Of a DNA stretch of 47,815 nt, positions 2,166-29,860 are shown one piece after another (position 1 is the stretch's first letter; every line of letters starts with the position of its first letter). The DNA comes from Thermoplasmatota archaeon. GTDB lineage: Archaea > Thermoplasmatota > JASEFT01. The stretch covers positions 26,037-73,851 of the forward strand of contig JASEFT010000002.1 in NCBI GenBank assembly GCA_030018475.1, given 5' to 3'. The notes under the pieces were generated by a model. That model was not told the origin of the DNA and did no database searches. It was given only the letters and a program-made list of their open reading frames with translations. The translations under genes were made by a program, and so were the position numbers.

Positions 2166-2171
2166 ACTCAT

Positions 2172-3297: not shown

Positions 3298-3298
3298 A

Positions 3299-3952: not shown

Positions 3953-4049
3953 TTCTTGTAATGAAAAGGGTTGTAAAGACTTAAATTTCGCTCTAAAAAG
4001 CCTAAAAGAAAAGCTTTATTTCCAACGAGTAACTTTACTTATATCAAAA

Positions 4050-4736: not shown

Positions 4737-4808
4737 CTGGTATATAAAGTTTTATTTATTCTTAAACGCAATTTACCTATTGATCGGAGAACGTTAGAAA
4801 AAAGACTC

Positions 4809-7183: not shown

Positions 7184-7408
7184 ATGGTAACACAAAGCCC
7201 GGACGTATCAAGTCTAGCAGAAGTATTGGATAGAATACTAGACAAAGGCATCGTTGTAGACGCATGGGCAAGAATCAGTTTGGTAGGCATTGAGCTACTG
7301 ACGATAGAGGCAAGAGTTGTTGTAGCAAGTGTAGATACATTCTTGCACTATGCAGAAGAGATTACAAAGATAGAGCAAGCAGCTATCGGCGCACCTGCAA
7401 CTGCTTAG
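7184..7408 (+). CDS. gvpA: gas vesicle structural protein GvpA (copy 1)
   Basis: [69 protein letters not shown] is the canonical GvpA core. An SD-like AGGAGGCGGAGAAGGAGAA lies upstream. Confidence 0.95.
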
Positions 7409-7423
7409 ACGAAAAAATCCTTT

Positions 7424-7446
7424 TCTCCCGATTTTTTTTAGGGAGA
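7424..7446 (+). terminator. hairpin TCTCCC-(GATTTTTTTTA)-GGGAGA with T8 tract downstream of gvpA1
   Basis: The stem is 7424-7429/7441-7446 and the T8 run is 7432-7439. Oligo-T is the usual archaeal termination signal, so this suggests a partial terminator between the two gvpA copies. Confidence 0.35.
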
Positions 7447-7537
7447 CGCAAGGGGTTTAGGTAAGTAAGAAGATAAAAATAGTTGGCAGGGTAGGAGCTA
7501 TCTGGCTCCGCCCTTTGAATGGAGGTGAAGAAGAAGA

Positions 7538-7762
7538 ATGGTAACACAATCACCAGACGTATCAAGCCTCGCAGAAGTGCTCGACAGAATACTTGACAAA
7601 GGCATCGTTGTAGACGCATGGGTAAGAATCAGCTTGGTAGGCATTGAGCTACTAACGATAGAGGCAAGAGTTGTTGTAGCAAGTGTAGATACATTCTTGC
7701 ACTATGCAGAAGAGATTACAAAGATAGAGCAAGCAGCTATCGGCGCACCTGCAACTGCTTAA
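7538..7762 (+). CDS. gvpA: gas vesicle structural protein GvpA (copy 2, A28V variant)
   Basis: The 74-aa protein is identical to copy 1 except WARISL to WVRISL. The 5' third differs at synonymous sites, while the 3' ~165 nt are nearly identical to copy 1. Confidence 0.95.
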
Positions 7763-7764
7763 AC

Positions 7765-7786
7765 CTCCTCGGAGCATAAAAGGAGG
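7765..7786 (+). promoter_or_regulatory. hairpin pairing CCTCC (7765-7769) with the Shine-Dalgarno GGAGG (7782-7786) of the downstream GvpC-like gene
   Basis: The 12-nt loop lies immediately after the gvpA2 stop. It could occlude the SD of ORF 7795. Confidence 0.3.
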
Positions 7787-7794
7787 TAGAGAAA

Positions 7795-8469
7795 ATGCCG
7801 GAAACAGTAGAAGAACTAACAACGACTTATTCGCGAGCTGAACTAGACGAAATGGCAGAAGAGCTAGGCTTGGTTCCAGAAGACTACCCTAATAAAGCCG
7901 CAATAGCAAAGGCTATTATTGCAGCAAGAAAAGCCAAACCGCCTGCTGTTAAAATACCCCCGAAAGTAGGCAAGAAAGGCGTGTACGCAAAGATAAAGGC
8001 CGCAGAAAAGTTCACTGCAAAAATGGACGCAGACGTAAAGGCACAAATTGGAGAAAACGTAGAAGCAGTCAAAAAGATAGAAACTGGTATTAGGGAAGTC
8101 GGGGGAAAGATAGAAGAAAAAGTTGATGACATTCAGTCAGCTGTAGACACACAGATAAAAGAGAACCAAGCTAAGGTTGCAGAGATAGGCAAAGATATCA
8201 AAGCACAGCAAAGGGAGAACATAGCGGCAGTCAAAAAGATAGAGACTGGCATAAGTGAAGTAACAAAGGCGAACGAAGCAAAAGTCAAGCAAATCCAGGC
8301 AGACATAGGAAAGCTGGTTAAGGAAAATCTAAGCGCAGTCAAAAAGATCAGTGAAGGTATAAAAGAGCAAGCAAGAGAAAACAAAGAGGCAGTTGAAGCG
8401 TTCGAACCAAAGGTTAGGGAATTGCAGACTGCTAACAAGAAATACGTAGACGACTTCTACTATGGCTGA
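7795..8469 (+). CDS. GvpC-like repeat protein (amphipathic coiled-coil repeats; SAP/Rho-N-like N-terminal motif; C-terminal KKYVDDFYYG)
   Basis: It occupies the gvpC position of the A-C-N-O order. There are three repeats of EN(V/I/L)xAVKKI(E/S)(T/E)GI.E. The N-terminus SRAELDEMAEELGLVPEDYPNKAAIAKAIIAA resembles SAP/Rho_N helix-hairpin motifs. An SD AGGAGGT sits 7 nt upstream. Confidence 0.5.
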   Translation: MPETVEELTTTYSRAELDEMAEELGLVPEDYPNKAAIAKAIIAARKAKPPAVKIPPKVGKKGVYAKIKAAEKFTAKMDADVKAQIGENVEAVKKIETGIREVGGKIEEKVDDIQSAVDTQIKENQAKVAEIGKDIKAQQRENIAAVKKIETGISEVTKANEAKVKQIQADIGKLVKENLSAVKKISEGIKEQARENKEAVEAFEPKVRELQTANKKYVDDFYYG

Positions 8470-9790: not shown

Positions 9791-10168
9791 ATGGCCGAGG
9801 AAAAAAGAGTTGAAGCTGTAATTAAGGAGGCAAAAATTAGGAAGATAGTCGATCTGTGGAGTCACAAACCAAGAGGATTGCAGTTTAATGATACAGATGC
9901 TCTGATAGTGACTGCAGAAACCGAGGCTGGAAAGATAATAAATGAAACGTTCTACTTCTGTCTAAAACCAGATGGAACGTTTAATATAGATACTGTAAGC
10001 AAGAATGGCAGCCATGTGAGGAGACAAAGACTTGCTAGTTTCCTAACACACTACAAGATCACAGACACACCAAAAAGCTACAATATAAAGGAAGGAGTAG
10101 AAAAATGGAAGGGGAAAAAGATAGAAATTGTCCCATACAAAGATGAGGGATATATCTATATTCCATAG
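9791..10168 (+). CDS. hypothetical gvp-associated protein (paralog of 21825..22421)
   Basis: The C-terminus RRQRLASFLTHYKITDTPKSYNIKEGVEKWKGKKIEIVPYKDEGYIYIP parallels RRKRLESFLKHYKITDKIEGYSIPERMKEWKKKKVKVVTYKGQDQIFIP of ORF 21825. SD AGGAGGT upstream. Confidence 0.5.
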   Translation: MAEEKRVEAVIKEAKIRKIVDLWSHKPRGLQFNDTDALIVTAETEAGKIINETFYFCLKPDGTFNIDTVSKNGSHVRRQRLASFLTHYKITDTPKSYNIKEGVEKWKGKKIEIVPYKDEGYIYIP

Positions 10169-10179
10169 GAGGTAATAAA

Positions 10180-10449
10180 ATGGTAACAGCAGAAATTAGT
10201 AAAATAGGAAAACAAAGCCTCTCCACAATAGGGAGTCTTTTAAACAAAAAACCTGAAAGCGTGGTAAGCGTTAGCAAAGAAGGAAAGGAATGGAAAGTCC
10301 TCGCTGAGGTATTGGAAAGAAGGGCGGTGCCTGATACGCAGGACATTCTTGGGAGATATGAGATGCGCTTGAATGAAGAAGGCGAGCTCTTGGGCTACAA
10401 GCAGGTAATGACAAGGAGGAGAGCGGATCTAATAGTAGAAGAAGAGTAG
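10180..10449 (+). CDS. gvpO: GvpO-like protein
   Basis: The 89-aa sequence VSVSKEGKEWKVLAEVLERRAVPDTQDILGRYEMRLNEEGELLGYKQVMTRRRADL fits my recollection of the GvpO family pattern (W.V..EVVER..VPDT.D.L..YE..LD..GEL.GY.R..RY.R). Position follows gvpN as in gvpACNO. SD GGAGGT upstream. Confidence 0.5.
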   Translation: MVTAEISKIGKQSLSTIGSLLNKKPESVVSVSKEGKEWKVLAEVLERRAVPDTQDILGRYEMRLNEEGELLGYKQVMTRRRADLIVEEE

Positions 10450-10484
10450 ATAAATATTAGAATAACTGAGAAGAGGTGAATGTA

Positions 10485-10613
10485 ATGGGAAAAGAAAGGC
10501 CGATAACAAAGTATGACCTGAGGGTTGCAAAAAGTAAGCGTCATCTAGATGCGCAGTCAAAAAGATGGAGTGCAAAGTATCAAAGAAGACCCAGGATTTG
10601 CAGAGGAGAGTAG
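10485..10613 (+). CDS. small basic ORF (42 aa), unannotated in track
   Basis: MGKERPITKYDLRVAKSKRHLDAQSKRWSAKYQRRPRICRGE with SD-like GAGAAGAGGTGAA upstream. Its stop abuts the next ORF start. Speculative. Confidence 0.2.
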   Translation: MGKERPITKYDLRVAKSKRHLDAQSKRWSAKYQRRPRICRGE

Positions 10614-10880
10614 GTGACAAATATGCCATCAGTTAAAGAATACACAAAACGGCTTGAGAAAGCAATTAAAGAAATAGGAGCAGGTATTGAAGAAAAATCT
10701 AAAATAATAGACAAAGGAGTCAAGGAAATACAGGCAGGAATGGAAGAAACATCCAGGCGTGTAGAGAGAGGAGTCAAGGAAATACAGGCAGGGATGGATG
10801 AAACCGCTAAAAGAGTTGAAAAAGGCGTTGAGGAATTGCAAACTGATAAGAAGAAGTTTACAAAAGCGTTCTGGGGCTAG
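10614..10880 (+). CDS. short coiled-coil repeat protein with C-terminal KKFTKAFWG motif (GvpC-like/phasin-like family member)
   Basis: Repeats KGVKEIQAGMEETSRRVE / RGVKEIQAGMDETAKRVE / KGVEELQ. The track start is GTG at 10614; ATG at 10623 (MPSVKEY) is an alternative. The C-terminal motif is shared with 7795 and 26940. Confidence 0.45.
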   Translation: MTNMPSVKEYTKRLEKAIKEIGAGIEEKSKIIDKGVKEIQAGMEETSRRVERGVKEIQAGMDETAKRVEKGVEELQTDKKKFTKAFWG

Positions 10881-10893
10881 ATAAGTAAAATAA

Positions 10894-11931
10894 ATGGGGG
10901 TAATAGGAATGTATGAAAAAGATAGATATGATATAACAGGAAGAAAAACAAGAGGCGGAGTAAGATACCATAAAACCATGGAAGAAAAAGAAATGGAAAG
11001 AAGAGAAGCAGAACTCAAGGCTATGCAGCTTGAGAAAACCAGGCAAGAAATTGAGGAGCAATTTCTAACGCCTAAGGCAGAGGTATTCGTTGAAACCGAA
11101 GAAATCAAAGACCTGGAAGAAAGAGTAAAAACTTGGATCGGCCTCGGCTATCCAGTTCACATAATAGGACCAACAGGTTGCGGGAAGACTATGTTAGCAG
11201 TCCACGTAGCGAGTCAGCGTGGAAGACCAGTAGTATGGCTGAATGGTGATGAGGAGATGACAACAACACACCTTGTTGGTGGATACGGACAATACTTGGA
11301 GGAGCACTATCATGACAGATTCATTCATAATGTCTATAAAAGCAGAGAAATGGTTGAACCTGGTTGGGTAGATAATCCATTGACAATTGCATGCAAATAT
11401 GGCTATACATTAATCTATAATGAGTTTTCCAGAGCTAAACCAGAGGCAAATAATGTTTTACTTTCTGTGTTAGAGGAAAAAATACTTGAACTGCCAACAA
11501 AGTTCGGTGAGGAAAGATATATCAAAGTACATCCGGACTTTGCTGCAATACTAACCAGCAACTCAATAGAATACGCAGGGGTACACGCCCCGCAGGATGC
11601 ATTGCTAGACAGAATGATAGCTTTGCATATGGGCTATTACAGTTTCGATACCGAGGTAGAGATCGTCAAAGCCCAAACAGGCATACCTGAGAAGGAAGCA
11701 AAAAAAGTAGTAAAGGTGGTGAGAGCAATAAGAGACAAGCTTCCAGAGGCAGAGAAGCCAGGGTCGAGAGCGTGTATACAGGTTGCTCAAGGACTGCAAG
11801 CGTGGAACGGTTACAGTAAGAAAAACTTCGAAAAAGTATGCATTGATGTGCTTGGATGCAAGATGAAAGGGCTAGACGAGTTATCTAAGATGGAGAAACT
11901 GATAAAAGAAGCGCTTGACAAGCTCACATAA
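10894..11931 (+). CDS. gvpN: GvpN AAA+ ATPase (copy 2)
   Basis: Walker A IIGPTGCGKTM. Clearly paralogous to 8769..9779 over its whole length (GLGYPVHIIGPTGCGKT...PVVWLNGDE...DNPLT.ACKYGYTL.YNEFSR.KPEANN.LLSVLEE.ILELPTKFGEERY..VHPDF). 345 aa. Confidence 0.9.
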   Translation: MGVIGMYEKDRYDITGRKTRGGVRYHKTMEEKEMERREAELKAMQLEKTRQEIEEQFLTPKAEVFVETEEIKDLEERVKTWIGLGYPVHIIGPTGCGKTMLAVHVASQRGRPVVWLNGDEEMTTTHLVGGYGQYLEEHYHDRFIHNVYKSREMVEPGWVDNPLTIACKYGYTLIYNEFSRAKPEANNVLLSVLEEKILELPTKFGEERYIKVHPDFAAILTSNSIEYAGVHAPQDALLDRMIALHMGYYSFDTEVEIVKAQTGIPEKEAKKVVKVVRAIRDKLPEAEKPGSRACIQVAQGLQAWNGYSKKNFEKVCIDVLGCKMKGLDELSKMEKLIKEALDKLT

Positions 11932-13779: not shown

Positions 13780-14175
13780 ATGGTAAATGTAAGACCTGCA
13801 AGTGAAGGCTTAAAAGAAGTTTTGGATAGGATACTAGATAAAGGAATTGTTATTGATTTGAATGCAAGAGCCTGCCTTAGCGATTTTGAGCTTTTAGGCA
13901 TAAACGCAATTGTTATTTTGAGCTCGTTCAAAACAGCTGCAAAGATCGGCATGGATTTTCCAGAGGGGACGAAAATGGATACTCCTGCATGGAAGGATTT
14001 ACTGTCAAAGCAGCCATGCCCGCTCTGCGGCAAGGAGTCGAGAACAAAAGAATTAAAAGAAGAAGGCTGCCCTTGGTGCGGCTGGAATTACAGACCTAAG
14101 TATAAAGAAGATAAGAAAACTTTCGAAAAAGAGCGAAAATATAGGTATGGGAAGGGAGGGAAATGGAGGAAATAG
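13780..14175 (+). CDS. GvpA-family (GvpJ/M-like) protein with C-terminal CxxC...CPWCGW zinc ribbon
   Basis: GvpA core [48 protein letters not shown], then CPLCGKESRTKELKEEGCPWCGWNY. Confidence 0.8.
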   Translation: MVNVRPASEGLKEVLDRILDKGIVIDLNARACLSDFELLGINAIVILSSFKTAAKIGMDFPEGTKMDTPAWKDLLSKQPCPLCGKESRTKELKEEGCPWCGWNYRPKYKEDKKTFEKERKYRYGKGGKWRK

Positions 14176-14549
14176 AAATATTAAGACCGGAAATAGAAAC
14201 TGAGGATACTGGCTTGGCAGGTGCAATTGACAGAATTCTAGATAAAGGTTTAGTGCTCAATGCAGATATTACAGTATCGGTTGCTGGTACTGAGTTATTG
14301 GGCATAAAAATAAGAGCTGCGCTCGCTAGTTTCGAAACTGCCGCAAAATATGGCTTAGAATTTCCATCTGGAACGAACATAAACACTGCAGCCTGGAAAG
14401 AGGCAACAATAGAGAAAGATACTTGTCCGCAGTGTGGTAAAAGATCATCTATAGAGGAATTGTTAAACGAGAGCTGTCCTTGGTGCGGCTGGGTATCTGC
14501 AAAGGCAAAAGTAGCAGTAAAACAAAAAGTAAAAGTGTTACAAAAGTGA
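14163..14549 (+). CDS. GvpA-family (GvpJ/M-like) protein with C-terminal CPQCG...CPWCGW zinc ribbon (paralog of preceding gene)
   Basis: LAGAIDRILDKGLVLNADITVSVAGTELLGIKIRAALASFETAAKYG, then CPQCGKRSSIEELLNESCPWCGWVS. Overlaps the upstream gene by 13 nt. Confidence 0.8.
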   Translation: MEEIEILRPEIETEDTGLAGAIDRILDKGLVLNADITVSVAGTELLGIKIRAALASFETAAKYGLEFPSGTNINTAAWKEATIEKDTCPQCGKRSSIEELLNESCPWCGWVSAKAKVAVKQKVKVLQK

Positions 14550-14556
14550 AACAAAA

Positions 14557-15357
14557 ATGGTTGATAACTCGTTCAAAAGGCTTGCTGAGTTCTTACCTTC
14601 AGATAAAAAAATTGCTGTTCTTAATGAGCTTTTAACTGTTTATGACGAAAGTGAGTTAGCGAAACTGCTTAAGTGCGATCCTCCTCTTATCAAGAAATGG
14701 TTGAGAAAAGCTCCGAGCAATAAATACATGCCCAAAATACTAGGGCTTGCTTTTTTCCGCTCCCCAAATATAGGTGATATACTTAAAGAAACGTTAACTG
14801 AGTTTGATTCTTTAGCTAAGTTGCTCGGCATAAAAGATGTAACTAGCAAGTTGGGCATTTTTATGAAGGAATTAGATGAAAGGAGCAGGGAAATAGTCTG
14901 GTATCTACTGAGAAACGGTCATGCAAATATTCGCGAGCTTGCAGAGATAACTAACGCAAAGACAGATAATGAAGTTCTTGTTAGGGTGAGAGAGCTTATA
15001 AACCCAAAATCAAAAGAACTCTTCGGTAAAGAAATAATGAAATTCGAAGAAGCTAAAATTAATTCTGTAACAGGTGAAAAAATTCTATTTTCATGGTGGC
15101 TGACTGAGAATATTCTACCTCTGGAGAGAGCCCCAACACTACTTGACGTATTTGATGAAAATTCTCGGATTAAAATAGTAGCAGAACTGCCGAGAGTTAA
15201 AGAAGATGATATAAAAATAGATATTGCACACCAGATCCTTACTATTTCAACTAATGGATATCAAAAAACAATCCCCCTATTTTGTAAGGTAAAGAAGATT
15301 GAAAAAACCTACAGGAATGGGATACTGGAGCTGAAGCTAGAAAAAGCTATGGAATGA
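14557..15357 (+). CDS. HTH-like N-terminal region fused to Hsp20/alpha-crystallin domain (GvpH-like)
   Basis: The C-terminus LLDVFDENSRIKIVAELPRVKEDDIKIDIAHQILTISTNGYQKTIPLFCKVKKIEKTYRNGILELKLEKA is an alpha-crystallin core. The N-terminal IVWYLLRNGHANIRELAEITNAKTDNEVLVRVRELI looks like a helix-turn-helix. Confidence 0.6.
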   Translation: MVDNSFKRLAEFLPSDKKIAVLNELLTVYDESELAKLLKCDPPLIKKWLRKAPSNKYMPKILGLAFFRSPNIGDILKETLTEFDSLAKLLGIKDVTSKLGIFMKELDERSREIVWYLLRNGHANIRELAEITNAKTDNEVLVRVRELINPKSKELFGKEIMKFEEAKINSVTGEKILFSWWLTENILPLERAPTLLDVFDENSRIKIVAELPRVKEDDIKIDIAHQILTISTNGYQKTIPLFCKVKKIEKTYRNGILELKLEKAME

Positions 15358-15366
15358 TAAAAAAAA

Positions 15367-15945
15367 ATGGCAGAAGAGAAAGAAGAAGATTACAAAAAAA
15401 GAATAAAAGAGCTTGAAGCCAGAATAAAAGCGCTCGAAAAGGAAAGAGAAAAGCCTAAAGAAGAAGAGCCTAGTATTGTAGAAGGTGTTGTTTCTCAATT
15501 TATACCTGGCTTGAGCGGTATTATTAAGAGCTTAGAAAAGAGCTCCCCTGAATTTAGAAAGCGCATTGCAGAGACTGATGCCAAAATCAAGCATAGATTA
15601 GAGACTGGCTGGACAAGCAAGCCTAAAGTGGAGTATGGTGTCACTGTGCGCGAGCTTGTACCTGAGAAGAGGGAAAAAATAGAAATAAAGCCGAAGGAAG
15701 TAAAAGCTCCTACTCTCGAGCGTGAGCCAATTGTCGATGTTTTTGAAACTGAAAAATATATTTCTGTAATTGCAGAACTGCCTGGTGTTGAGGAAAGAGA
15801 AATAAAAACGAAACTTACTGAAGACGGGCTTGAAATTTCTGCGGGTAGATATAAAAAAATTATCAAGCTCCCTTCTAAGCCAAAAGCGATTGGTGAGAAA
15901 ACATACAAGCACGGCATCTTAGAGCTTAAAATAGATAAAAAATGA
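15367..15945 (+). CDS. Hsp20/alpha-crystallin-domain protein (GvpH-like)
   Basis: PIVDVFETEKYISVIAELPGVEEREIKTKLTEDGLEISAG...YKHGILELKIDKK. Coiled-coil K/E N-terminus. Confidence 0.6.
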   Translation: MAEEKEEDYKKRIKELEARIKALEKEREKPKEEEPSIVEGVVSQFIPGLSGIIKSLEKSSPEFRKRIAETDAKIKHRLETGWTSKPKVEYGVTVRELVPEKREKIEIKPKEVKAPTLEREPIVDVFETEKYISVIAELPGVEEREIKTKLTEDGLEISAGRYKKIIKLPSKPKAIGEKTYKHGILELKIDKK

Positions 15946-16027: not shown

Positions 16028-16348
16028 ATGACTATTAATATTGACGAGAACAATCTAAAGCAAGGCTTGCTTGGCTTGGTAGTAGCGCTAGTCGAAGTAA
16101 TACAGGAAACGCTAGAAAGGCAAGCGCTTAGAAGAATGGAATCAGGAAGATTGACAGAAGAAGAAATTGAGCGACTAGGAAATGCATTAATGGAACTTGA
16201 TGAAGCGCTTGAGCACATAAAAAAAGAAAATAAAATTGAAGAAGCAGTAAAATCAGTGAGAAGCGGTCTTGATAATATAGCACACGAGCTCGTAAACAAA
16301 ATGGTCAATCCAGAGAAGTGGAAAGAGGAAGTTGAGGCAAATGCCTGA
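16028..16348 (+). CDS. gvpK: gas vesicle protein GvpK
   Basis: LLGLVVALVEVIQETLERQALRRMESGRLTEEEIERLGNALMELDEALEHI matches the conserved GvpK core (GL..LV..VVELL...E..A.RRMESG.L...EIERLG). Confidence 0.8.
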   Translation: MTINIDENNLKQGLLGLVVALVEVIQETLERQALRRMESGRLTEEEIERLGNALMELDEALEHIKKENKIEEAVKSVRSGLDNIAHELVNKMVNPEKWKEEVEANA

Positions 16349-17171
16349 AGAAGAGGTGGTAGTTGAAAAAGAGGCACTAGAAGCTCAGGAGGCTAGATAT
16401 CTTTATTGTATAATTAACTCTAGCGCTACCTCAGACTTTGGTGATATGGGGATAGAGGACAGCAAAGTTTACACTATACCTTGTAAAGACATTGCTGCAG
16501 TTGTGCATAAATGCGCTCCTAAGCCTTACAAATCAAAAGACGAGAATCTGGTGAAAGAATGGATTTTAGCGCATCAATATATTATTGACGAAGCCATGAA
16601 AAAATTTGGTACGCCAATACCTTTCACTTTTGATACTATAATTAAAGGTGATGATGACAAAGTAAAAGAGTGGCTAGCTGAAGATTACCCAACGCTTAAA
16701 GCCAAACTGGAAAAAGTCAAAGATAAAGCAGAATACACTGTTCAAATATTTTGTGAGCCTAATATTATTCTTAAAGAAATTGAGGCCCAAAACGAAGCTC
16801 TGAAGAAATTAAAAGAAGAGATCAAAACAAAGCCTAAAGGCATCGCTTATATGCTCAGCCAGAAATTAGAAAGAATGCAAAAAGAAGAGCTGATAAAGCT
16901 TGAGAATAATTATGTTAAAGATTTTTACGAGCAGCTAAAGAGCCTCGTTGACGAATGTATAGCAGAGCCTACAAACAAGCCAGTGCCTGAAAAATGGAAA
17001 GCTCAAAAGCTAATTTTAAATTTGGCTTGTCTAGTACATAAGGATAAAGTTGAGAAGCTTGGAGAAGAGTTAGGGAAGATTAATAAAACCCAAAAATTCA
17101 AGGTGAGGTTTACAGGTCCTTGGGCACCTTTCTCATTTGTCGGCAAAGAGCTTGGGGAGAAGAAAACTTGA
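16332..17171 (+). CDS. gas vesicle protein GvpF/L family
   Basis: The N-terminus YLYCIINSSATSDFGDMGIEDSKVYTIPCKDIAAVVH plus internal ILAHQYIIDEAMKKFGTPIPFTFDTII and the C-terminal [10 protein letters not shown] are typical GvpF/L. Overlaps gvpK by 17 nt. Confidence 0.75.
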   Translation: MRQMPEEEVVVEKEALEAQEARYLYCIINSSATSDFGDMGIEDSKVYTIPCKDIAAVVHKCAPKPYKSKDENLVKEWILAHQYIIDEAMKKFGTPIPFTFDTIIKGDDDKVKEWLAEDYPTLKAKLEKVKDKAEYTVQIFCEPNIILKEIEAQNEALKKLKEEIKTKPKGIAYMLSQKLERMQKEELIKLENNYVKDFYEQLKSLVDECIAEPTNKPVPEKWKAQKLILNLACLVHKDKVEKLGEELGKINKTQKFKVRFTGPWAPFSFVGKELGEKKT

Positions 17172-18160
17172 AAAAGGGTATATACATCTACGGAATAATT
17201 GAAGAGAACGGGAACAAAAGTTTCGGGCAAATTGGAATGGATAAGAGCGAAGTATATACTATTCCCTATCAAACTCTTGCTGCTGTCGTTAGCAACGTGC
17301 CTGCTATGGTATATCAACTTACTCCCGAAAATGCAAGGGCCCATGAGAACGTTATCAGAAAAGTTATGGAAGAGCGCTCAGTTATTCCTATGAGTTTCGG
17401 TACGGTCGCGAGCAATGGCAGCCAAGTTGAAAAGATTTTGAGTATTGGTTACAAGGTATTCAAATCCATGCTTGAAAGGATAGAAAATAAGATCCAAATA
17501 GATGTAAAGGTGCTGTGGGATAAAGATAAAATATACCTTGACATTTTGCGCGAAAACGAAAATATCAAAAGGTTAACTAGGAAAGCAGATAAGTCCCAAG
17601 AGGATAAAATAGAGCTTGGCAAGCTTGTCAACCAAGCGTTAGCTGAGAAAAGAGAATTTTATATTGGTGAGATAAAAAATGTTTTAGCCAATTTTTCAGA
17701 GCCGCCAAAAGAAAACAAGCTTACCGATGAAAGAATGATTTTGAACTTGGCTTATTTGGTTGATAAAACAAGAGAACAAGAATTTTATGACAGGGTAAAT
17801 GAGAAAGAGAGAAGTTATGAAGGCAAACTCCAGATAATCGCAGTGGGCCCCCTGCCTGCTTATAATTTTACTAAACTAGAATTAAAAAAGCTAGATTTTA
17901 AATTGATAGACAGTGCAAGAAAAATACTAGGGCTAAATGAAGAAATAACCAATGAAGAGCTTGAAGAAGCGCATCGAAAGCTTGCATATAGATATCATCC
18001 AGATAGAAATCCAAACGATGTGGCTTCAGAGCAGCAGTTCAAAAAAATTGAGAAAGCCTATATGATACTTGCTAGGTATTCCAAAAATTATCCTGCTGGA
18101 AAAATCTCGCTCAAGAAAGAAGATGTTGATAAAACCATTCTGATCCTGGAAAAAGAGTGA
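17120..18160 (+). CDS. GvpF/L-family protein fused to C-terminal DnaJ (J) domain
   Basis: GvpF/L core [39 protein letters not shown]...VGPLPAYNF. The C-terminal 70 aa [52 protein letters not shown] carry the HPD J-domain signature. An in-frame TTG at 17168, overlapping the upstream TGA, is an alternative start. Confidence 0.75.
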
Positions 18161-18165
18161 AAAAA

Positions 18166-20064
18166 ATGAGCAAGATCATAGGTATAGACCTGGGGACGAG
18201 TAATTCTGCAGCTGCCGTAATTGTAAATGGTAGTGTAAAAATAATACCTAGCGCGGAAGGTCTTGCTCTGCATGGTAAAATGTTCCCTTCAGTTATTACT
18301 TTTCTGGAAGAGGGGAAGGTAATAGTAGGAAAGGATGCAAAAAAATTAATGGCTCCTGGGCGCACGATAACAAACATCAAAAGAAAGATGGGTACTGATT
18401 ATAAAATAAAAATCGGTAAGAAATGGTATATCCCACAAGAGCTCTCAGCGCTTATTTTAAAGAAGATAAAAAAAGATGCAGAATTATATCTTAATGAATC
18501 TATAAAGAAAGCAGTTATTACTTGCCCTGCATATTTTAACGATAATCAAAGAACTGCAACGAGAGATGCAGGTGTTATCGCAGGCTTAGATGTTGTGCGC
18601 ATTATAAACGAGCCTACTGCAGCAGCTTTAGCTTACGGGCTAGATAAAACTAAAAGAAAATTGAATATCGCAGTTTTGGATTTAGGTGGTGGCACTTTCG
18701 ATGTTACTATTCTAGAAATGTGCAATTCTGTGTTTAGAGTTATAGCTACCTCCGGCGATACTCAGCTTGGCGGAATAGATATGGATAATAAAATTCTAGA
18801 TTATCTGGTTGATAAGTTAAGAGGAGAAGCGCTTGATTTAAAAGCCGAAAATCTCATGCAGGTATTAAGAAACGAGGCAGAAAAGGCAAAAATAAACCTA
18901 TCTTCTAAACTTTCAACAACCATAAATTTGCCTTTTACTAATGTAAATATAAATCTAACGAGGACTAAACTAGAAGAGCTGATTGAAGATGTAATTTCAA
19001 GAATGGATAAACCATTAGAGCAAGCATTGGCAGACTCGAATTTAGCTCCTAAAGATATCGATAAAATAATTCTGGTAGGCGGGCCTACAAAAATGCCGGT
19101 TATTAGAAAAAAGGTAAAAGAATTTTTCGGTAGAGTTCCTGAGCGCGGTATAGATCCTATGCACTGTGTTGCTGCAGGCGCTGCTATCCAAGGGAGCGTG
19201 CTTTCCGGTGAACTTGGTAATATTGCGCTCCTTGACGTTACACCGCTCTCATTAGGTATAGAGACTTCAGGCACTGTGTTCACAAGATTAATACACAGAA
19301 ATACTACTATCCCAGTAGAAGAGAGCAGAGTATTTACAACTGCACAGGATTTTCAGTCTGTAGTGCCAATCCATGTATTGCAAGGTGAAAGAGCGCTTGC
19401 GCACGACAATATAACTTTAGGCGTGTTTAATCTAACTGGAATAAAGCCTGCACCTAGACACGAGCCCATGATTGAAGTTACTTTCAGTATAGATGCTAAT
19501 GGCATATTACACGTCTCTGCAGAAGATTTGGAAACCGGTAAAAAGCAAGCAATCGAAATAACAGAATCGACAAGATTGCCTAAAGAAGAGATAAGCAGAA
19601 TGATCAACGAGGCAGCAGTGTTTGCAGAGCTGGATAAAAGAAAGGAAAATGAGATAAAGCTTCGCACTAGAGCAGAAGCGCTTATCTACGAGCTGGGCCA
19701 AGTAATAAAAAAAGAAAAGCTCCCTATTGACGAGAAAAGGAATATTACAACGCTTGTTAAAGAATTAAAGCACGCGCTAAGAGTTAATAATAATGAGCAA
19801 GTGAAGAGCGCTACTGAGGAATTGAATAAATTAGTAGATAGAATAGCATTAAGAAACAGAGCTGCTAACCGAGCAAACGCATTAATATCTTCGGCAAACA
19901 AAATGATTACAGAAATTAAAATTCCCAAAGCCGAAAAAGTGGCTATTGAGGAAATGATTGTGAAATTAAAAGAAGCGTTAAAGAATGATAACACTAAAGA
20001 AATCGAAAAGCAGATCGGTGAGCTGACTGAAGAATTGACTATATTAGAGGTAGATTATAAATGA
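18166..20064 (+). CDS. Hsp70/DnaK-family chaperone (divergent, gvp-cluster-embedded)
   Basis: [65 protein letters not shown] and [16 protein letters not shown] are canonical Hsp70 NBD motifs. The track start is GTG at 18157, overlapping the upstream stop; ATG at 18166 gives the canonical [11 protein letters not shown]. 632-635 aa. Confidence 0.9.
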
Positions 20065-20438
20065 AAAAAAGATCAATATTTCAAAAAGCTGTAGACGACT
20101 GGTTTAAAGGAAAGGCGATTCAGGAATTTATTAAGGCAAGGTGTAGAGGAAGAGCATTTGATGCAGTTCAAAATCTTGCGAGAAGAATTTCGGAAGGTGC
20201 CGAGGAATATAGAAAAAGAATAATGGAAGGAGCGGTCAGGTACAGAAGAAAAGTTAAAACATCAGCTTCCAGAGCTAAAGGATGTGACCTTTGTATAGGA
20301 GTAGAGAAGCTGACAAATGTAGCAAGATACGAGTTGATAGGTGAACCGAAAGCAGAGTATATCCCTAAATATTTGTGTGAGTTTCATTACCAACATGGAA
20401 TATATAAAGACAATTATTGTTATAGAAAGATTAAATGA
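20061..20438 (+). CDS. hypothetical Cys-containing protein, translationally coupled to Hsp70 (ATGA overlap)
   Basis: 125 aa with CRGRAF, GCDLCIG, CEFHY and YCY. Possible metal-binding. No family recognised. Confidence 0.4.
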
Positions 20439-21824: not shown

Positions 21825-22421
21825 GTGAAGTATATGGCAGAGTTATATAAGCCGAAATTAACACCAAAAAGGAGCCCAAAAGAAATTAAAGAAAGATTTA
21901 GGAAGGAGAAAAAGCGACATGCAGAAGCTCTAGAACGATTAAGAGAAGCAAGAAAAATCGAGCTAGAAAAGGTAGATGCTACAATTGAAGATGCGATACT
22001 TTATACCGACACATCTTGGTTTGTTGAAAATTTCGATAACTGCTATGAAATAAAGGATTTATGGGCAACGAGACCTAAACTTTATGGTGATACCGATGTG
22101 ATAGCTGTAACTTTAAAACCATCCGAGGGTAAGCCGATAACAGATATATTCCCAGTTGTGCTGAGATTTGACGGCACATTAGAACCCAATGCTACATCTA
22201 GAAGGTCGCGCATTAGAAGGAAAAGGCTTGAAAGTTTTCTAAAACACTATAAAATAACCGACAAAATAGAAGGTTATAGTATACCTGAAAGAATGAAAGA
22301 ATGGAAAAAGAAAAAAGTAAAAGTAGTTACCTACAAGGGACAGGATCAAATCTTTATCCCTAACCATCTAGTTAGATATCGTATGCCCAAAATGCCTGAA
22401 AAAATCAAAGAGGTGAAATAA
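21825..22421 (+). CDS. hypothetical gvp-associated protein (paralog of 9791..10168, with longer N-terminus)
   Basis: See 9791..10168. 198 aa. Confidence 0.5.
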   Translation: MKYMAELYKPKLTPKRSPKEIKERFRKEKKRHAEALERLREARKIELEKVDATIEDAILYTDTSWFVENFDNCYEIKDLWATRPKLYGDTDVIAVTLKPSEGKPITDIFPVVLRFDGTLEPNATSRRSRIRRKRLESFLKHYKITDKIEGYSIPERMKEWKKKKVKVVTYKGQDQIFIPNHLVRYRMPKMPEKIKEVK

Positions 22422-22577: not shown

Positions 22578-23156
22578 ATGAAGCCTACAAAAGATCTAGA
22601 ATGCACGCTTGTAGATGTGTTAGACAGAATTCTAGATAAAGGCATTATTCTTAATGCAGATGTTATTATCCACGTTGCAGGTGTGCCGCTGATCGGTATA
22701 AATTTAAGAGCTGCGCTCGCAGGTATAGAAACAATGCTTGATTACGGTATGATGGAAGCCTGGGATGCAAGTATAAGAAGCTGGTATGCAAAGGGGTATG
22801 CTGATAAAATAGCTGTGCCGTTGCAAGAAAACGAAAAAATTATACTCAAAACCTACGGCTCTTATTATAACGATGGCGGTATTTACTCTGCATGGCAGCA
22901 TGGCTATCTCTATCTTACAAACAAAAGATTATTTTTGTTTAGGAAAGAGCCTGCTAGAATGTTGTTTGAGACAGAGCTATTGAAAATAAGAAGTCTAGAG
23001 ATAAGTGAGAAAAACTATTTGGGAAAAAGCAGAGAAAATCTTTGCTTGTTATTAGAAAACAATAAAATTGCAATGCTTTATTCAGAGAACATAGAGGAAT
23101 TAAAGACTGCGATTAACAAACAAATAGAAATGCTACTAGCTGCAATAGAGCAATAG
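22578..23156 (+). CDS. GvpA-family N-terminal domain fused to C-terminal bacterial-PH (bPH/GRAM-like) domain
   Basis: The N-terminus [47 protein letters not shown] is a GvpA/J/M core. The C-terminus GYLYLTNKRLFLFRKEP...LLKIRSLEISEK matches the bPH_2-type motif (G.LyLTN.Rlif). Confidence 0.7.
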   Translation: MKPTKDLECTLVDVLDRILDKGIILNADVIIHVAGVPLIGINLRAALAGIETMLDYGMMEAWDASIRSWYAKGYADKIAVPLQENEKIILKTYGSYYNDGGIYSAWQHGYLYLTNKRLFLFRKEPARMLFETELLKIRSLEISEKNYLGKSRENLCLLLENNKIAMLYSENIEELKTAINKQIEMLLAAIEQ

Positions 23157-24059: not shown

Positions 24060-26306
<2,247 letters not shown>

Positions 26307-26312
26307 TTATTT

Positions 26313-26612
26313 TCATTGAAAGTAATCAAGAAACGATTGAAAAAAATTATCTCTACCTAAGATATTAAGGCTTGCGGTATATTCTTCTGAAAATGCTATC
26401 TTTGATGTAAACTTATAGTCTTCTACCCTGATTTCAACTTTATTATCCAGTTGTCTAGCGACTTCGAATTTGAAGATAGAAACACTAGAGCCTGAATCTA
26501 CTAATGCAAAAAACTCTTTTTCGATACCCTTATTAATCAGTGTTACTTGGATTATTGGGAAGTGTTTTCCTCTGATAACCAGATAAGGATATTCTATCAT
26601 AAAATATACCAT
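26313..26612 (-). CDS. putative retropepsin-like aspartic protease fold protein
   Basis: 99 aa with ALVDSGSS (D-S/T-G-A/S active-site-like) in an N-terminal beta-rich region. Weak call. Confidence 0.3.
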   Translation of the reverse strand: MVYFMIEYPYLVIRGKHFPIIQVTLINKGIEKEFFALVDSGSSVSIFKFEVARQLDNKVEIRVEDYKFTSKIAFSEEYTASLNILGRDNFFQSFLDYFQ

Positions 26613-26809
26613 TCCTCATCCTTCCTCGGGACTAAAAAGGAGGCTGCTCTAATAGATGGATAGTTCTTTTTACAAACTTCCGCAGCCTTATCTAAAAGTT
26701 TATCGGATGCCAATATCCCTTCTTTCACATTTATAGCTATCCATTTTCCGGAGTGCTTTTCGATTTCTTTTCCATGTTTAGAGATCCATTCCAACTCTTC
26801 TCTACCCAT
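26597..26809 (-). CDS. hypothetical small protein, overlaps downstream partner by 16 nt
   Basis: 70 aa, MGREELEWISKHGKEIEKHSGKWIAI.... It forms a two-gene operon with 26313..26612. Confidence 0.35.
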   Translation of the reverse strand: MGREELEWISKHGKEIEKHSGKWIAINVKEGILASDKLLDKAAEVCKKNYPSIRAASFLVPRKDEEWYIL

Positions 26810-26939
26810 ATAATCACCTATTACTCTCTATATAATTATAATAGTGACTGTTTATAAATATATCGTTGAGTAGAGTCTTAGTTAGTAAACTTACGTTCAG
26901 TCAATCTTGACTATATCTGCCGGGCTCAAAAAAAATCGC

Positions 26940-27326
26940 TTACCCGTAAAATTTTTTAGTATATTTCTCTTTTACTTCTTCAAGCTCTTTAATTGCTTTT
27001 TCTAAAGCTACTTTTTTATCGCTGAGCTTGGCTTGCAGTGCTTTGATCTCAGGTATGAGCTCTTCCTTTTTCTCTGGCGCTTTAGCCTTTAGCTCTCTCA
27101 TACTAGAAGTTATTTCCTGCACTTCTTTTAGCGCTTTCTCCAAAGGCTCCTTTTTCTGGATGAGCTCAACTTCCATTTCTTTAACAGCCTTCAATTTTTC
27201 TTCTACGCTCTCAATACCTGTGATTGGTTTTGTAGTAGTTTTCTCTTTAAATTCTTTGAGCGCTGCTTCAAGCTCGTCTTTTTTCTTTTTTAGCTCTTCT
27301 TCTAACTTTTCTACAGCTTCAGCCAT
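26940..27326 (-). CDS. coiled-coil protein with C-terminal KEKYTKKFYG motif (same family as 7795 and 10614 C-termini)
   Basis: 128 aa, K/E/L heptad-like throughout. The C-terminus matches KK[YF]x(2,3)F[YW]G. Confidence 0.5.
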   Translation of the reverse strand: MAEAVEKLEEELKKKKDELEAALKEFKEKTTTKPITGIESVEEKLKAVKEMEVELIQKKEPLEKALKEVQEITSSMRELKAKAPEKKEELIPEIKALQAKLSDKKVALEKAIKELEEVKEKYTKKFYG

Positions 27327-27346
27327 TTTTTTTCACCCCTTTTCTT

Positions 27347-27523
27347 TTATTTTTTCTTTCTTCTCTTTGCAAGCGCAAGCTCTTTAGACCTATCTTTTAC
27401 CGTGGAATACCTCGTACCTGGACTCCTTGCTGTTGAATACAAAACAGAATATGTTGTTCCACTGCCCTTAACGCTACTTAACACTTTGTATTTTTTTGTT
27501 TTTTTCTTCTTTTCCTTTGCCAT
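27347..27523 (-). CDS. small lysine-rich ORF (58 aa) with strong SD, unannotated in track
   Basis: Minus-strand AAGGAGGGATAAAAAATGG. The translation MAKEKKKKTKKYKVLSSVKGSGTTYSVLYSTARSPGTRYSTVKDRSKELALAKRRKKK contains T-Y-S motifs like the TTYSPK repeats of ORF 11963. Confidence 0.35.
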   Translation of the reverse strand: MAKEKKKKTKKYKVLSSVKGSGTTYSVLYSTARSPGTRYSTVKDRSKELALAKRRKKK

Positions 27524-27571
27524 TTTTTATCCCTCCTTACTCAATTCGAGCTCATTTCTTCTTTCTTCTCC

Positions 27572-29533
27572 TCAGTCATATAATCCAGCTCCATACATAA
27601 CCTGAGCAAATTCTAGAAGCCCATCTACAGACCTAACCTCGTGTGGAAACAGAGGCATTTCAGTTATTGTAAAATTTGAAAATTTATTGTAGATATCTTT
27701 GACATAATCTAGCTCTCTTTCTGCTCGTGAGGCACAGAAACTGCAGCTGCTAAGGGGTGTGACTTTATTAATAACGATCTTATGCACAGGTATCTCAAGC
27801 TCCCGAAGCCTTTTAACTACGCGCTCTGTTTCAACAATACCCAGCTTCTCAGGAACTGTAACAACAACAAACTCAGTTCTACTCTCATCTTTTAAGAGAG
27901 AGATTAGGTTTTTAACAAGTTTCTTCTTGGTGAGCACGAGTTTCATACAATTGTAAAGAGAAACTATTTTTCGGTATTTCATCATGGTTTTGATAAGAGC
28001 GCTGAGCCAGTCCATAACTATCGCTGGAAGCTCGAGTAACTTTAACAAATGCCCGGAAGGAGCTGTATCTAAGATGAAAATATCGTATCTGCCTTCTTCA
28101 ATGAAGTCCATAATTTTAGTCAGGGCCATAAGCTCGTCTAAACCAGGTGGCGAGAGCTCTAGAGTTCTATCGAACATTTTTCTATCAAATGGCAAGTCTA
28201 TACCTGCACCACCAGTGATGAACCCTTCGAATATTTCGTCGATCTCTTTCTTATATGTTTGCTTAAATTCGTTTAATGCCTCGTCTGCATCCATTGCTAC
28301 AGCATACAGGTTTTCCTTTATCTGCAGCGGCTCTGTACCTATCAGCAAATCAAAACTCCTGCCTAGTGCCTGTGCTGGGTCGGTAGAAAAAATCAATATT
28401 TTCTTGTCAGGCAGCATTTTAGCAAGCTGTAGCGCGGTTGCAGCTGCTACGGTTGTTTTCCCTAACCCTCCTTTACCACCAAAGAGGTATAACTTGCGAG
28501 TACCATCAAACTTAATTTTCGGTCCGGGGGTTGGTGATATTTGTTCAGGTCCGTATCTCTTGATTAACTCATACTTGTATGATTTTCCAGAAAGAACTTC
28601 GCCGAACTTCTCGAGATTGCTTAACCCTTTAACTTCGTATGGTAACAAAGGGCTTTCGAGAATGTTGTGATTCGGGAATAAATTCTTGAGCTGCTCAATA
28701 TATTTTTTCTGCTTTTCAGCTCTAGATCTGCAAAAATCACATTCAGTAGATTGGTTAACTAGATTAACGATGATATTCTTTACGTTAATTTTATTCTTCT
28801 CGATGGTCTCGAGAAGTAATTTAGTCTCCTCCACACCCATTGATTCAGGTATTGTTACAGGCACAAATTCTGTCTTTCTAGGATCTGAGAAAAACGCTCT
28901 TATATTTTTCACATCTCTTATTTGCTGCTCTAAAAACCAATCCATTTCATCTTTTGGTAACTTTTTCCGTGCAAAGGTAGATCTTATATATCTGTGTTTA
29001 GCTTGCATTATACCTAAAATCTCAGCAAAGTCTTCTAACAGTTTGGGTAGGGAGAAGAAGCGCATCAAATGCCCTGTCGCTGCGGTATCTATTATGAAGA
29101 CATCGTAGGTATTCTCTTCTTTCATAAAATCTATGAGTTTCCGTACAGCCATGAGCTCGTCCATGCCTGGTATCGAAAGCTCGAAAAATCTTTCTAGATC
29201 TTGTGTATCGAGATAAGTGCCCCTATCTACTATGGTTTTAATGTATAGCTCGTTTTTTTTCTTGTATTCCCTTACAAGTTCTTCGGTATTTACTTCTAAA
29301 CCCCAGAGATTTTCATTAAGTTTAGTAATACTGCCACCGATCGTGCATTCGAATATATCTGAGAGTGAATGGGCAGGGTTTATCGAGACAAGCAAGGTTT
29401 TTCGGGCTTGTTTTGCTGTCAGTAGCGCTACCGCTGCAGCACATGTAGTTTTACCTACGCCACCTTTCCCGCCAAAAAATATGAGCTTTAAGTCTTTATC
29501 GCATAAAAAACTAGGTAATTCTTTAGTAATCAT
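27572..29533 (-). CDS. ArsA/GET3-family tandem (duplicated) P-loop ATPase
   Basis: Two halves each have GGKGGVGKTT/GGKGGLGKTT P-loops and DTAATGHLMRF / DTAPSGHLLKL switch-II signatures, plus CxxC pairs (ECDFC, SCSFC). 653 aa. Confidence 0.9.
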   Translation of the reverse strand: MITKELPSFLCDKDLKLIFFGGKGGVGKTTCAAAVALLTAKQARKTLLVSINPAHSLSDIFECTIGGSITKLNENLWGLEVNTEELVREYKKKNELYIKTIVDRGTYLDTQDLERFFELSIPGMDELMAVRKLIDFMKEENTYDVFIIDTAATGHLMRFFSLPKLLEDFAEILGIMQAKHRYIRSTFARKKLPKDEMDWFLEQQIRDVKNIRAFFSDPRKTEFVPVTIPESMGVEETKLLLETIEKNKINVKNIIVNLVNQSTECDFCRSRAEKQKKYIEQLKNLFPNHNILESPLLPYEVKGLSNLEKFGEVLSGKSYKYELIKRYGPEQISPTPGPKIKFDGTRKLYLFGGKGGLGKTTVAAATALQLAKMLPDKKILIFSTDPAQALGRSFDLLIGTEPLQIKENLYAVAMDADEALNEFKQTYKKEIDEIFEGFITGGAGIDLPFDRKMFDRTLELSPPGLDELMALTKIMDFIEEGRYDIFILDTAPSGHLLKLLELPAIVMDWLSALIKTMMKYRKIVSLYNCMKLVLTKKKLVKNLISLLKDESRTEFVVVTVPEKLGIVETERVVKRLRELEIPVHKIVINKVTPLSSCSFCASRAERELDYVKDIYNKFSNFTITEMPLFPHEVRSVDGLLEFAQVMYGAGLYD

Positions 29534-29567
29534 TTAGTGTGATTCCCCTTTCTCTTCACTGCTTTTC

Positions 29568-29852
29568 TCATCCTAAAATATCCATTCTTTTATTAAGATT
29601 CATACTGTTTACGCGGTTGGCTATTTTTAAGTTATGATTGAGCACATTGTTCCTTCTCTCATACTCTTCTTTAGAAATCTCGCCAAACTCATATAGGAGC
29701 CTGTTTTCTTTTAGCTGGTCGTTAATCTTATCAGGATTGTACACTTCTTGCAGTGTATGGTCTCTTATCTGCTCTACCAGCCAGATCATATCAAACGGTG
29801 GTATTGATATTCCGAGCATACGCAGAAATGCATCGTCTACAAAAAACGGCAT
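29568..29852 (-). CDS. gvpG: gas vesicle protein GvpG-like
   Basis: MPFFVDDAFLRMLGISIPPFDMIWLVEQIRDHTLQEVYNPDKINDQLKENRLLYEFGEISKEEYERR matches the GvpG pattern (L..L...A.E.YD...I...L.EL...YE.GEISEEEY...E..L). Confidence 0.6.
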   Translation of the reverse strand: MPFFVDDAFLRMLGISIPPFDMIWLVEQIRDHTLQEVYNPDKINDQLKENRLLYEFGEISKEEYERRNNVLNHNLKIANRVNSMNLNKRMDILG

Positions 29853-29860
29853 TTTTTAGT

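Follow-up and report, generated by a model that had tools for sequence, protein, structure and literature searches.

A J-domain GvpF fusion and its linked Hsp70: a candidate chaperone pair in gas-vesicle gene clusters

Introduction

What does a J domain do on a gas-vesicle protein whose gene is followed directly by that of an Hsp70? The question is raised by a 47.8-kb stretch of DNA from a Candidatus Thermoplasmatota metagenome-assembled genome (MAG), here called the window, which is a gas-vesicle (gvp) gene cluster with its main block on the + strand at about 5.9 to 23.2 kb. The defining task of J-domain proteins is to act as adaptors, bringing clients to Hsp70 and setting off ATP hydrolysis, and one gene of this cluster, gvpF-J, encodes a GvpF/L core with a J domain appended to its C-terminus. 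In the work described here, we analyze the fusion, the linked Hsp70 and their relatives in other genomes. We propose that GvpF-J and the Hsp70 form an ATP-driven chaperone pair that would serve GvpA-family clients during gas-vesicle building, which is the best-supported reading of the locus and, judged on sequence evidence, a reasonably probable one.

The locus bears on the long-standing questions of gas-vesicle assembly and of the role of the essential GvpF/L proteins, GvpF above all. In Halobacterium, GvpF is the only partner of GvpA (PMC7688916). In Bacillus megaterium, it is the primary binder of GvpA2, binds it transiently, is displaced by GvpG, and was proposed by the authors of that work to be a chaperone; the same authors, in their 2024 interaction map, point out that the crystal structures of GvpF leave its function unexplained and that chaperoning of GvpA is only hypothesized (PMC11445434). 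Neither a J domain on a Gvp protein nor an Hsp70 within a gvp cluster turned up in a full-text search of 7.7 million open-access papers and bioRxiv, and Gvp goes unmentioned in the main text of a large 2023 survey of J-protein architectures. Public databases label these sequences simply as "GvpL/GvpF family gas vesicle protein" and "molecular chaperone DnaK".

Results

A GvpF/L core with a predicted C-terminal J domain

The gene and its two parts are as follows:

17168..18160, + strand: gvpF-J, 330 aa, GvpF/L core plus C-terminal J domain, with 100% identity and coverage to NCBI protein P0001
17177..17872, + strand: GvpF core, aa 4-235, ending in VGPLPAYNF
17897..18082, + strand: J domain, aa 244-305, helices I-III, followed by a conserved 25-aa tail

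The original prediction, made from the sequence alone, described an open reading frame (ORF) at 17120..18160 with a full GvpF/L core ending in GPLPAYNF. This is borne out: the Pfam model GvpL_GvpF (PF06386) matches aa 4-235 with an E-value of 4e-62, covering positions 1-244 of its 245, and the VGPLPAYNF motif is present. The likelier start of the gene is the TTG at 17168; it shares bases with the stop codon (TGA) of the gvpF/L gene upstream (TTGA). The gene lies in a typical GvpF/L context, flanked by gvpK, gvpF/L, gvpN, gvpO and gvpA. In phmmer searches against the PDB, residues 1-235 match the GvpF structures 6l5d (56.9 bits) and 4qsg (50.4 bits), and the J-bearing protein comes nearer to crystallized GvpF than do the two other GvpF/L paralogs of the window (56.9 bits versus 35.5 and 35.0). 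Scores against NCBIfam are low, at 91 bits for GvpF-cyano (cutoff 350) and 42.5 bits for GvpL (cutoff 200); by these profiles GvpF-J is a member of the GvpF/GvpL family and the equivalog of neither cyanobacterial GvpF nor GvpL.

By both profile and predicted fold, the C-terminal segment of GvpF-J is a true J domain. A DnaJ profile search had been named beforehand as a possible refutation of that claim, and Pfam DnaJ (PF00226) in fact matches aa 252-303 with an E-value of 1.2e-14 and 54.6 bits against a cutoff of 27.8, rising to 56.8 bits for the isolated C-terminus. Residues 249-307 also match some 40 J domains in the PDB by phmmer. The HPD signature occupies aa 277-279 (codons 17996-18004) within [13 protein letters not shown], and H277-P278-D279 falls between predicted helices 262-276 and 285-305, in the expected helix II-III loop. 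Structure prediction of the fusion, proposed earlier as a check, recovers both folds: an AlphaFold2 model built with 24 homologs has a mean pLDDT of 89.9, with 94-96 over the J helices, and Foldseek aligns it to GvpF 6l5d_B with a TM-score of 0.84 and to the DnaJ J domain 5nro_B, from a DnaK-DnaJ complex, with a TM-score of 0.80; many further J domains are matched at probability 1.00.

The fusion recurs across archaea and bacteria

A protein search with the fusion gave 264 matches with E below 1e-5, and both Pfam domains are present in all of the best 120. The same single-ORF architecture occurs in more than 120 independent clusters at 90% identity, with named sources in Thermoplasmatota, Dehalococcoidales, Nitrospirota, Nitrospinae, Omnitrophica and Thermodesulfovibrionales. 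An alignment of 24 fusions, reaching down to 32% identity, leaves H277, P278 and D279 invariant (HPD in 24/24), together with the VGPLP.Y.F motif. We also scanned one genome per species, which yielded 418 loci with a relative of the fusion, and checked the J domain in the best 80 of these, all from MAGs or single-cell genomes. A J domain with HPD directly follows the GvpF core in 80/80. The archaea among them include Thermoplasmatales, Methanomicrobia, Halobacteria, Bathyarchaeia, Micrarchaeota and Nitrosotalea, and the bacteria include Desulfobacteraceae, Dehalococcoidia, Syntrophales, Nitrospirota, Planctomycetota, Omnitrophota, Latescibacter, Aerophobetes, KSB1, Cloacimonetes, Actinomycetota and others. 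The GvpF-J architecture is widespread, across many archaeal and bacterial phyla.

This distribution bears directly on whether the fusion is real. It could in principle be an assembly or annotation artifact, such as a frameshift joining two genes, and the window does derive from a MAG; or the segment could be a degenerate pseudo-J domain that has lost co-chaperone activity, in keeping with a Pfam match that spans only positions 4-55 of the 63-position J model and with several canonical basic residues of helix II (positions 19, 22 and 23) being acidic. Both ideas are highly improbable. The same single ORF appears in the independent protein clusters and inspected loci just described, which come from different assemblies; HPD is invariant, the J helices are modeled with high confidence, and the basic residues equivalent to K26 and R27 are kept along with K48. 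Because a J domain with HPD is found in every inspected locus, we treat an artifact or a pseudo-J domain as excluded for practical purposes.

Linkage of gvpF-J to an Hsp70 gene

The gene directly 3' of the fusion is the second member of the proposed pair:

18166..20064, + strand: gvp-linked DnaK-type Hsp70, 632 aa, with an alternative GTG start at 18157; identical to NCBI protein P0121

The stop codon of gvpF-J had been predicted to overlap the start of the Hsp70 gene. That holds for a start at GTG 18157 (GTGA) and fails for the ATG at 18166 that NCBI annotates, which lies 5 bases past the stop and opens the canonical N-terminus [14 protein letters not shown]. The two genes are tightly linked, not necessarily overlapping, and the operon is compact around them, with gaps of -17 to +9 nt.

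The same linkage is found well beyond this genome. In 12/12 archaeal genome loci, and in L082, a Thermoplasmatota relative that is 69% identical, an Hsp70 gene directly follows the fusion within 3-150 bp, and in total the fusion is linked to Hsp70 in at least six archaeal lineages. Pairwise distances of GvpF-J and of the linked Hsp70 correlate closely across the archaeal loci (r=0.97, Mantel 0/2000), which argues that the two genes have traveled together. Bacterial loci have a different layout: in 12 of them the Hsp70 gene is not adjacent to the fusion and is found farther on in that gvp cluster, at its 3' end, past GvpA-PH or GvpA-like genes, and where the sequence continues past Hsp70 the next gene encodes a PH-wHTH-Hsp20 protein (wHTH, winged helix-turn-helix). 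The gaps between gvp genes and Hsp70 in the bacterial loci contain no GrpE; they hold histidine kinase and response regulator pairs or an actin-like ATPase instead. Two such layouts can be recorded in their own right: a 342-aa actin/MreB-like ATPase (10167-11213) sits immediately 5' of the gvp-linked Hsp70 in an Aerophobus gvp cluster (L071), and a histidine kinase and response regulator pair fills that slot in L030 and L042.

The gvp-linked Hsp70 forms a clade of its own

The Hsp70 is complete. Pfam HSP70 (PF00012) matches it with an E-value of 3e-185 over positions 1-594 of 599, spanning the nucleotide-binding domain, the linker, the beta part of the substrate-binding domain (SBD) and the lid, and the catalytic residues and the linker/SBD junction [13 protein letters not shown] are present. 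Over 88% of its length it shares 57-60% identity with housekeeping archaeal DnaKs. Relative to E. coli proteins in a trimmed alignment, identity is 49% to DnaK, 38% to HscA and 34% to HscC (46% to DnaK by BLASTP over the aligned region). The protein scores above the cutoff of the NCBIfam DnaK equivalog model NF001413 (705 bits versus 648) and below that of TIGR02350 (700 versus 822.55). The earlier description of a divergent Hsp70 was thus overstated, and the protein is only moderately divergent. Membership in the HscA or HscC groups was considered and rejected, with scores of 491 and 487 bits against the HscA models (cutoffs 708 and 620) alongside the low identities above.

In a neighbor-joining tree of 49 sequences (551 columns, 100 bootstraps), all archaeal gvp-linked Hsp70s group together in a long-branched clade (bootstrap 100), apart from the DnaKs of Methanothermobacter, Bathyarchaeia and Asgard archaea. 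The bacterial gvp-linked Hsp70s form a second clade, also with bootstrap 100, which drops to 57 once HscA and HscC are added. Two non-gvp DnaKs from Bathyarchaeia, P0144 and P0166, both lie within grpE-dnaK-dnaJ operons. The window encodes neither GrpE nor a class-A DnaJ, so that the housekeeping context is absent around its Hsp70. The claim that this Hsp70 is dedicated to the gvp cluster therefore gains support from a clade seen only beside GvpF-J genes, from its separation from the DnaKs of grpE-dnaK-dnaJ operons, and from its co-divergence with GvpF-J.

The residues of the protein point the same way. In E. coli DnaK numbering, used for all Hsp70 positions, it retains D8, K70, R167, N170, E171, T173, D194, T199 and D201 as well as the hydrophobic linker. 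Three other positions set the archaeal gvp-linked group apart: position 217 is K, R or Q in 20/20 gvp-linked proteins versus E in 21/21 housekeeping ones; position 477 is K, S or Q in 16/20 versus D in 21/21; and position 404 in the substrate arch (M404) is S in 19/20 versus L, V or Q in housekeeping proteins. The window Hsp70 carries R217, S404 and S477. Among the best 120 database matches to it, 18 combine K or R at 217 with S404, and about 103 have E206, E217, D477 and a hydrophobic residue or Q at 404. From its sequence, the gvp-linked Hsp70 looks functional but specialized.

Several points weigh against a dedicated pair that serves gas-vesicle building. Most bacterial fusion loci (Pirellulales-type, many Nitrospirota, Omnitrophota) have no Hsp70 within 10 kb, and therefore the J domain does not strictly need a linked one; because archaeal, 3'-end and Hsp70-less loci all occur, the J fusion is more general than the linked Hsp70, which is frequent but not obligatory. 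No GrpE, the nucleotide-exchange factor, is found in the window or in the related clusters examined. The Hsp70 passes the DnaK equivalog model NF001413, and our trees are neighbor-joining only with few bacterial housekeeping DnaKs sampled. Finally, every functional step of the model set out below is one that we infer.

A simpler account is that the Hsp70 is the organism's general DnaK, present in the gvp cluster by chance, and that the J domain of GvpF recruits any DnaK, with no private pair. NCBI names the protein DnaK, it passes NF001413, its identity to housekeeping archaeal DnaKs is substantial, and the many bacterial fusions with no linked Hsp70 must use a housekeeping one. We consider this account unlikely. 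It sits poorly with a gvp-only clade that has full bootstrap support and longer branches, with the K/R217 and S404 signature that separates gvp-type from E217-bearing housekeeping-type matches, and with the failed TIGR02350 match. Nor does it fit the lack of grpE or class-A dnaJ neighbors beside the gvp-linked copies, which P0144 and P0166 both have, or a linkage kept across at least six archaeal lineages. The dedicated pair is our preferred reading.

Charge changes at the predicted J-Hsp70 interface

In the DnaJ-DnaK complex, R22, K26, R27, K48 and K51 (DnaJ numbering, used for all J-domain positions) are the basic residues that set the position of the J domain, facing acidic DnaK residues E206, D211, E217 and D477, while D35 bonds to DnaK R167 and H33 to the linker (PMC8215388). 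The archaeal fusions retain basic residues at positions 26 and 27, K48 and HPD. They carry E, D, N or S at position 22, often with acidic residues at 19 and 23; K or R stands at position 22 in the DnaJs of E. coli and two Bathyarchaeia and in nearly all bacterial fusions. In a subclade formed by L002, L003 and L010, the Hsp70 has E206K and E217K, and the J domain has D or E at 22 and 23 and N or T at 26. We hypothesize that the two surfaces have co-adapted, possibly by charge inversion, in what would be two or three independent evolutionary events, read here as residue sets rather than measured contacts.

A separate pattern is seen in most bacterial GvpF-J proteins (L012-L080), in which E, D, N or Q replaces the canonical K48, though many of these loci have no linked Hsp70. 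In E. coli, K48 forms a salt bridge to DnaK D477.

A bolder extension, which we advance tentatively as a possibility short of a probable conclusion, is that the gvp cluster carries a private, electrostatically rewired J-domain/Hsp70 pair insulated from the housekeeping DnaK/DnaJ network. If this is true, the cluster, with its Hsp20-like and GvpN AAA+ genes, would be a self-contained, horizontally mobile cassette for organelle assembly and proteostasis, and the fusion would be natural "Rosetta-stone" evidence for GvpF as a chaperone adaptor of GvpA.

A model for GvpF-J and Hsp70 in gas-vesicle building

The model starts from what the loci present directly, namely the domain architecture, the J-to-Hsp70 signaling residues, the gene linkage, the separate Hsp70 clade and the co-divergence of the two proteins. 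Because GvpF binds GvpA, because the J-bearing paralog is the one nearest to crystallized GvpF, and because J proteins are adaptors, we favor a J-protein adaptor that loads GvpA-family clients onto Hsp70. GvpF-J would belong to the class-C (type III) J-domain proteins, with the GvpF fold serving to bind the client. Its core would bind the hydrophobic shell protein GvpA or GvpJ/M-like paralogs, with the products of two tandem gvpA genes in the cluster as the presumed ultimate clients. The C-terminal J domain would then dock on the co-transcribed Hsp70 in its ATP state, HPD would trigger hydrolysis, and Hsp70 would clamp the GvpF-bound client. Two outcomes can be envisaged: GvpA-family proteins may be kept soluble and passed on for insertion into the growing vesicle, or Hsp70 may strip GvpF from them. 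Hsp20-like holdases and AAA+ proteins would complete a proteostasis module borne by the cluster.

Published GvpF-GvpA binding points to GvpA-family proteins as the client. In this model the J domain would act on the co-encoded Hsp70 rather than on another, and the step affected would be assembly.

The surrounding cluster and a possible role in recycling

On the + strand the cluster begins with a PadR/MEDS regulator, two tandem gvpA genes, a gene for a GvpC-like repeat protein, GvpN, GvpO and a second GvpN. Its middle part holds several lysine-rich ORFs, two GvpA-family genes with zinc ribbons, two Hsp20-like genes and gvpK, and its 3' part holds a gvpF/L paralog, gvpF-J, Hsp70, four poorly conserved ORFs and a GvpA-PH fusion. 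The features to which we refer are:

7184-7408 and 7538-7762, + strand: two tandem gvpA genes, 74 aa each and near-identical, with the GvpA core motif [18 protein letters not shown] in their translated ORFs
14557..15945, + strand: two small-heat-shock (Hsp20-like) genes of the same compact operon, of which the first also encodes a winged-helix domain
16028..16348, + strand: gvpK, Pfam GvpK E-value 1.7e-21
16332..17171, + strand: gvpF/L paralog lacking a J domain, directly 5' of gvpF-J, Pfam GvpL_GvpF E-value 3.3e-68
20061..20438, + strand: Cys-rich ORF, 125 aa, with an ATGA overlap with the Hsp70 stop
22578..23156, + strand: GvpA-family and PH-domain fusion, Pfam Gas_vesicle E-value 8e-16 plus bPH_3
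24060-26282, - strand: CDC48/VCP-type AAA+ ATPase
27572-29533, - strand: ArsA/Get3-type ATPase, tandem-duplicated
29861-30262, - strand: GvpG
30263-31753, - strand: GvpL/F of 495 aa with a long N-terminal extension
31746-32561, - strand: second PadR+MEDS regulator

Both Hsp20-like proteins fall below the NCBIfam archaeal Hsp20 cutoff (E-values 5e-16 and 2e-17) and match Pfam HSP20 and ArsA_HSP20 weakly, and homologs of their genes are kept in related loci. The fusion of a winged helix to an Hsp20-like domain is itself conserved in gvp clusters (window 14557-15357, L018 19038-19982, L049 19889-20791); the bacterial versions have an extra N-terminal PH-like domain and are placed immediately 3' of Hsp70. 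The last five features above belong to a second gvp-related block in opposite orientation (24060-32561), and the position of CDC48 and ArsA/Get3 beside gvp genes suggests additional factors for chaperoning or targeting.

Small heat-shock proteins and Hsp70 are known to cooperate in disaggregation, and this gene content raises another role for the pair. Acting with the Hsp20-like proteins, and perhaps with CDC48 from the neighboring block, it could mainly serve quality control or recycling by disaggregating misassembled or collapsed GvpA; in a variant, it could strip a GvpF/L nucleation complex off finished vesicles, in the manner of auxilin-dependent uncoating. Two Hsp20-like genes in the same operon, the PH-wHTH-Hsp20 gene after Hsp70 in bacterial clusters, and the adjoining CDC48 and ArsA/Get3-type ATPases all fit such a role, as does the transient binding of GvpF to GvpA and its displacement by GvpG (PMC11445434). 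We regard recycling, with the uncoating variant counted in, as a minor possibility; sequence does not distinguish it from assembly, and it overlaps the best explanation rather than excluding it. Assembly of GvpA-family proteins with the help of GvpF-J and Hsp70 remains our preferred reading.

The segment 3' of Hsp70 is less conserved. The original prediction coupled the Cys-rich ORF to Hsp70 through the ATGA overlap, and the overlap is there; a place in a conserved module did not hold up, since the ORF is absent from the closest relatives, L082 and L001. It has no Pfam or NCBIfam match and no tblastn match in L001-L080, and a search of 1.84 billion representatives returned a single genuine homolog, P0241 (67% identity), plus a weak and probably spurious match to P0242, a PAS-repeat protein. 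A role as a zinc-finger partner or exchange factor was considered and rejected for this orphan, which has no family match and no counterpart in 80 loci. It is probably a real, lineage-restricted gene outside the conserved module. In L082, which lacks it, the GvpA-PH gene comes directly after Hsp70, as it does in archaeal relatives generally (synteny in L001, L004-L011 and L082); in bacterial clusters that gene precedes Hsp70. The 2.5 kb between Hsp70 and the GvpA-PH gene in the window are specific to this lineage and contain ORF 21825-22421, a paralog of ORF 9791-10168. These two ORFs have no assigned function and share the motif RRxRLxSFLxHYKITD, and a homolog lies directly 5' of the GvpF-J gene in L002, L003 and L010.

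Other features of the window can be noted more briefly. The 224-aa protein encoded after the tandem gvpA genes (block 7184-8469) has repeated AVKKIETGI-type motifs and only weak, apolipoprotein-like Pfam matches; it may be a GvpC analog. Two GvpA-family (GvpJ/M-like) proteins, encoded at 13780-14175 and 14163-14549, bear a C-terminal zinc-ribbon motif (CPxCG...CPWCGW); they have homologs in most related loci, and a similar motif ends the bacterial GvpA-PH protein of L030. Upstream of the cluster, at 1710-5495, lie genes for three DUF835 proteins and a KaiC-like ATPase, adjoining an Hsp20-like ORF (395-1165), and the edge of the window (47129-47791, - strand) holds part of a Y2-type transposase.

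Discussion

The GvpF-J fusion, recurrent in dozens of phyla and often linked to its own Hsp70, constitutes independent genomic evidence for the hypothesis that GvpF chaperones GvpA. Specialists in gas vesicles would not expect it, and through it the old question of GvpF's role becomes directly testable. For chaperone biology, GvpF-J would represent a new class-C J-protein architecture, and its interface with Hsp70 may be naturally orthogonal. There is also a possible application: heterologous gas-vesicle expression for acoustic reporter genes is reported to be limited by proteotoxic stress (PMC12848028), and the cluster-borne set of Hsp70, J and small heat-shock proteins could be a portable remedy.

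The pair can be compared with several known systems. Canonical GvpF proteins (4QSG from Microcystis, 6L5D from Anabaena, and those of Halobacterium and B. megaterium) share the fold and the gvp-cluster context of GvpF-J, at a sequence identity of only about 22%, and differ in ending right after a ...PYxF motif with no J domain. To our knowledge, the studied model gvp clusters of Halobacterium, Anabaena, B. megaterium and Serratia encode no Hsp70. Housekeeping archaeal DnaKs of grpE-dnaK-dnaJ operons share with the window Hsp70 the catalytic, linker and R167/N170/T173 residues. Unlike them, it belongs to another clade, has no grpE or class-A dnaJ neighbor, carries the gvp-type changes of E217, D477 and the M404 equivalent, and has a duplicated segment in its C-terminal lid and a tail that ends in LE.DY, not DADYEV.

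Auxilin/GAK with Hsc70 in clathrin uncoating, and TopJ of the Mycoplasma terminal organelle, are likewise class-C J proteins that recruit Hsp70 to a supramolecular assembly. The J domain of auxilin is C-terminal to its lattice-binding part, as in GvpF-J, and TopJ is among the NCBIfam J-domain matches of GvpF-J. Neither has homology to GvpF-J outside the J domain, and in both cases the partner is the general cytosolic Hsp70, not a paralog encoded alongside.

HscB-HscA, the co-chaperone and Hsp70 for Fe-S clusters encoded in the isc operon, and DjlC-HscC of E. coli share more with the locus described here: in each, a specialized J protein with its own client- or site-binding domain is encoded beside a specialized Hsp70 paralog, either within the operon of the pathway concerned or next to it, with no GrpE in the operon. 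The differences are that the window Hsp70 is DnaK-type, unlike HscA and HscC, that the client module is a GvpF fold, that the client would be a structural shell protein and not a scaffold enzyme, and that the J domain is C-terminal in GvpF-J and N-terminal in HscB. In its logic, the proposed GvpF-J/Hsp70 pair comes closest to these two operon-encoded pairs.

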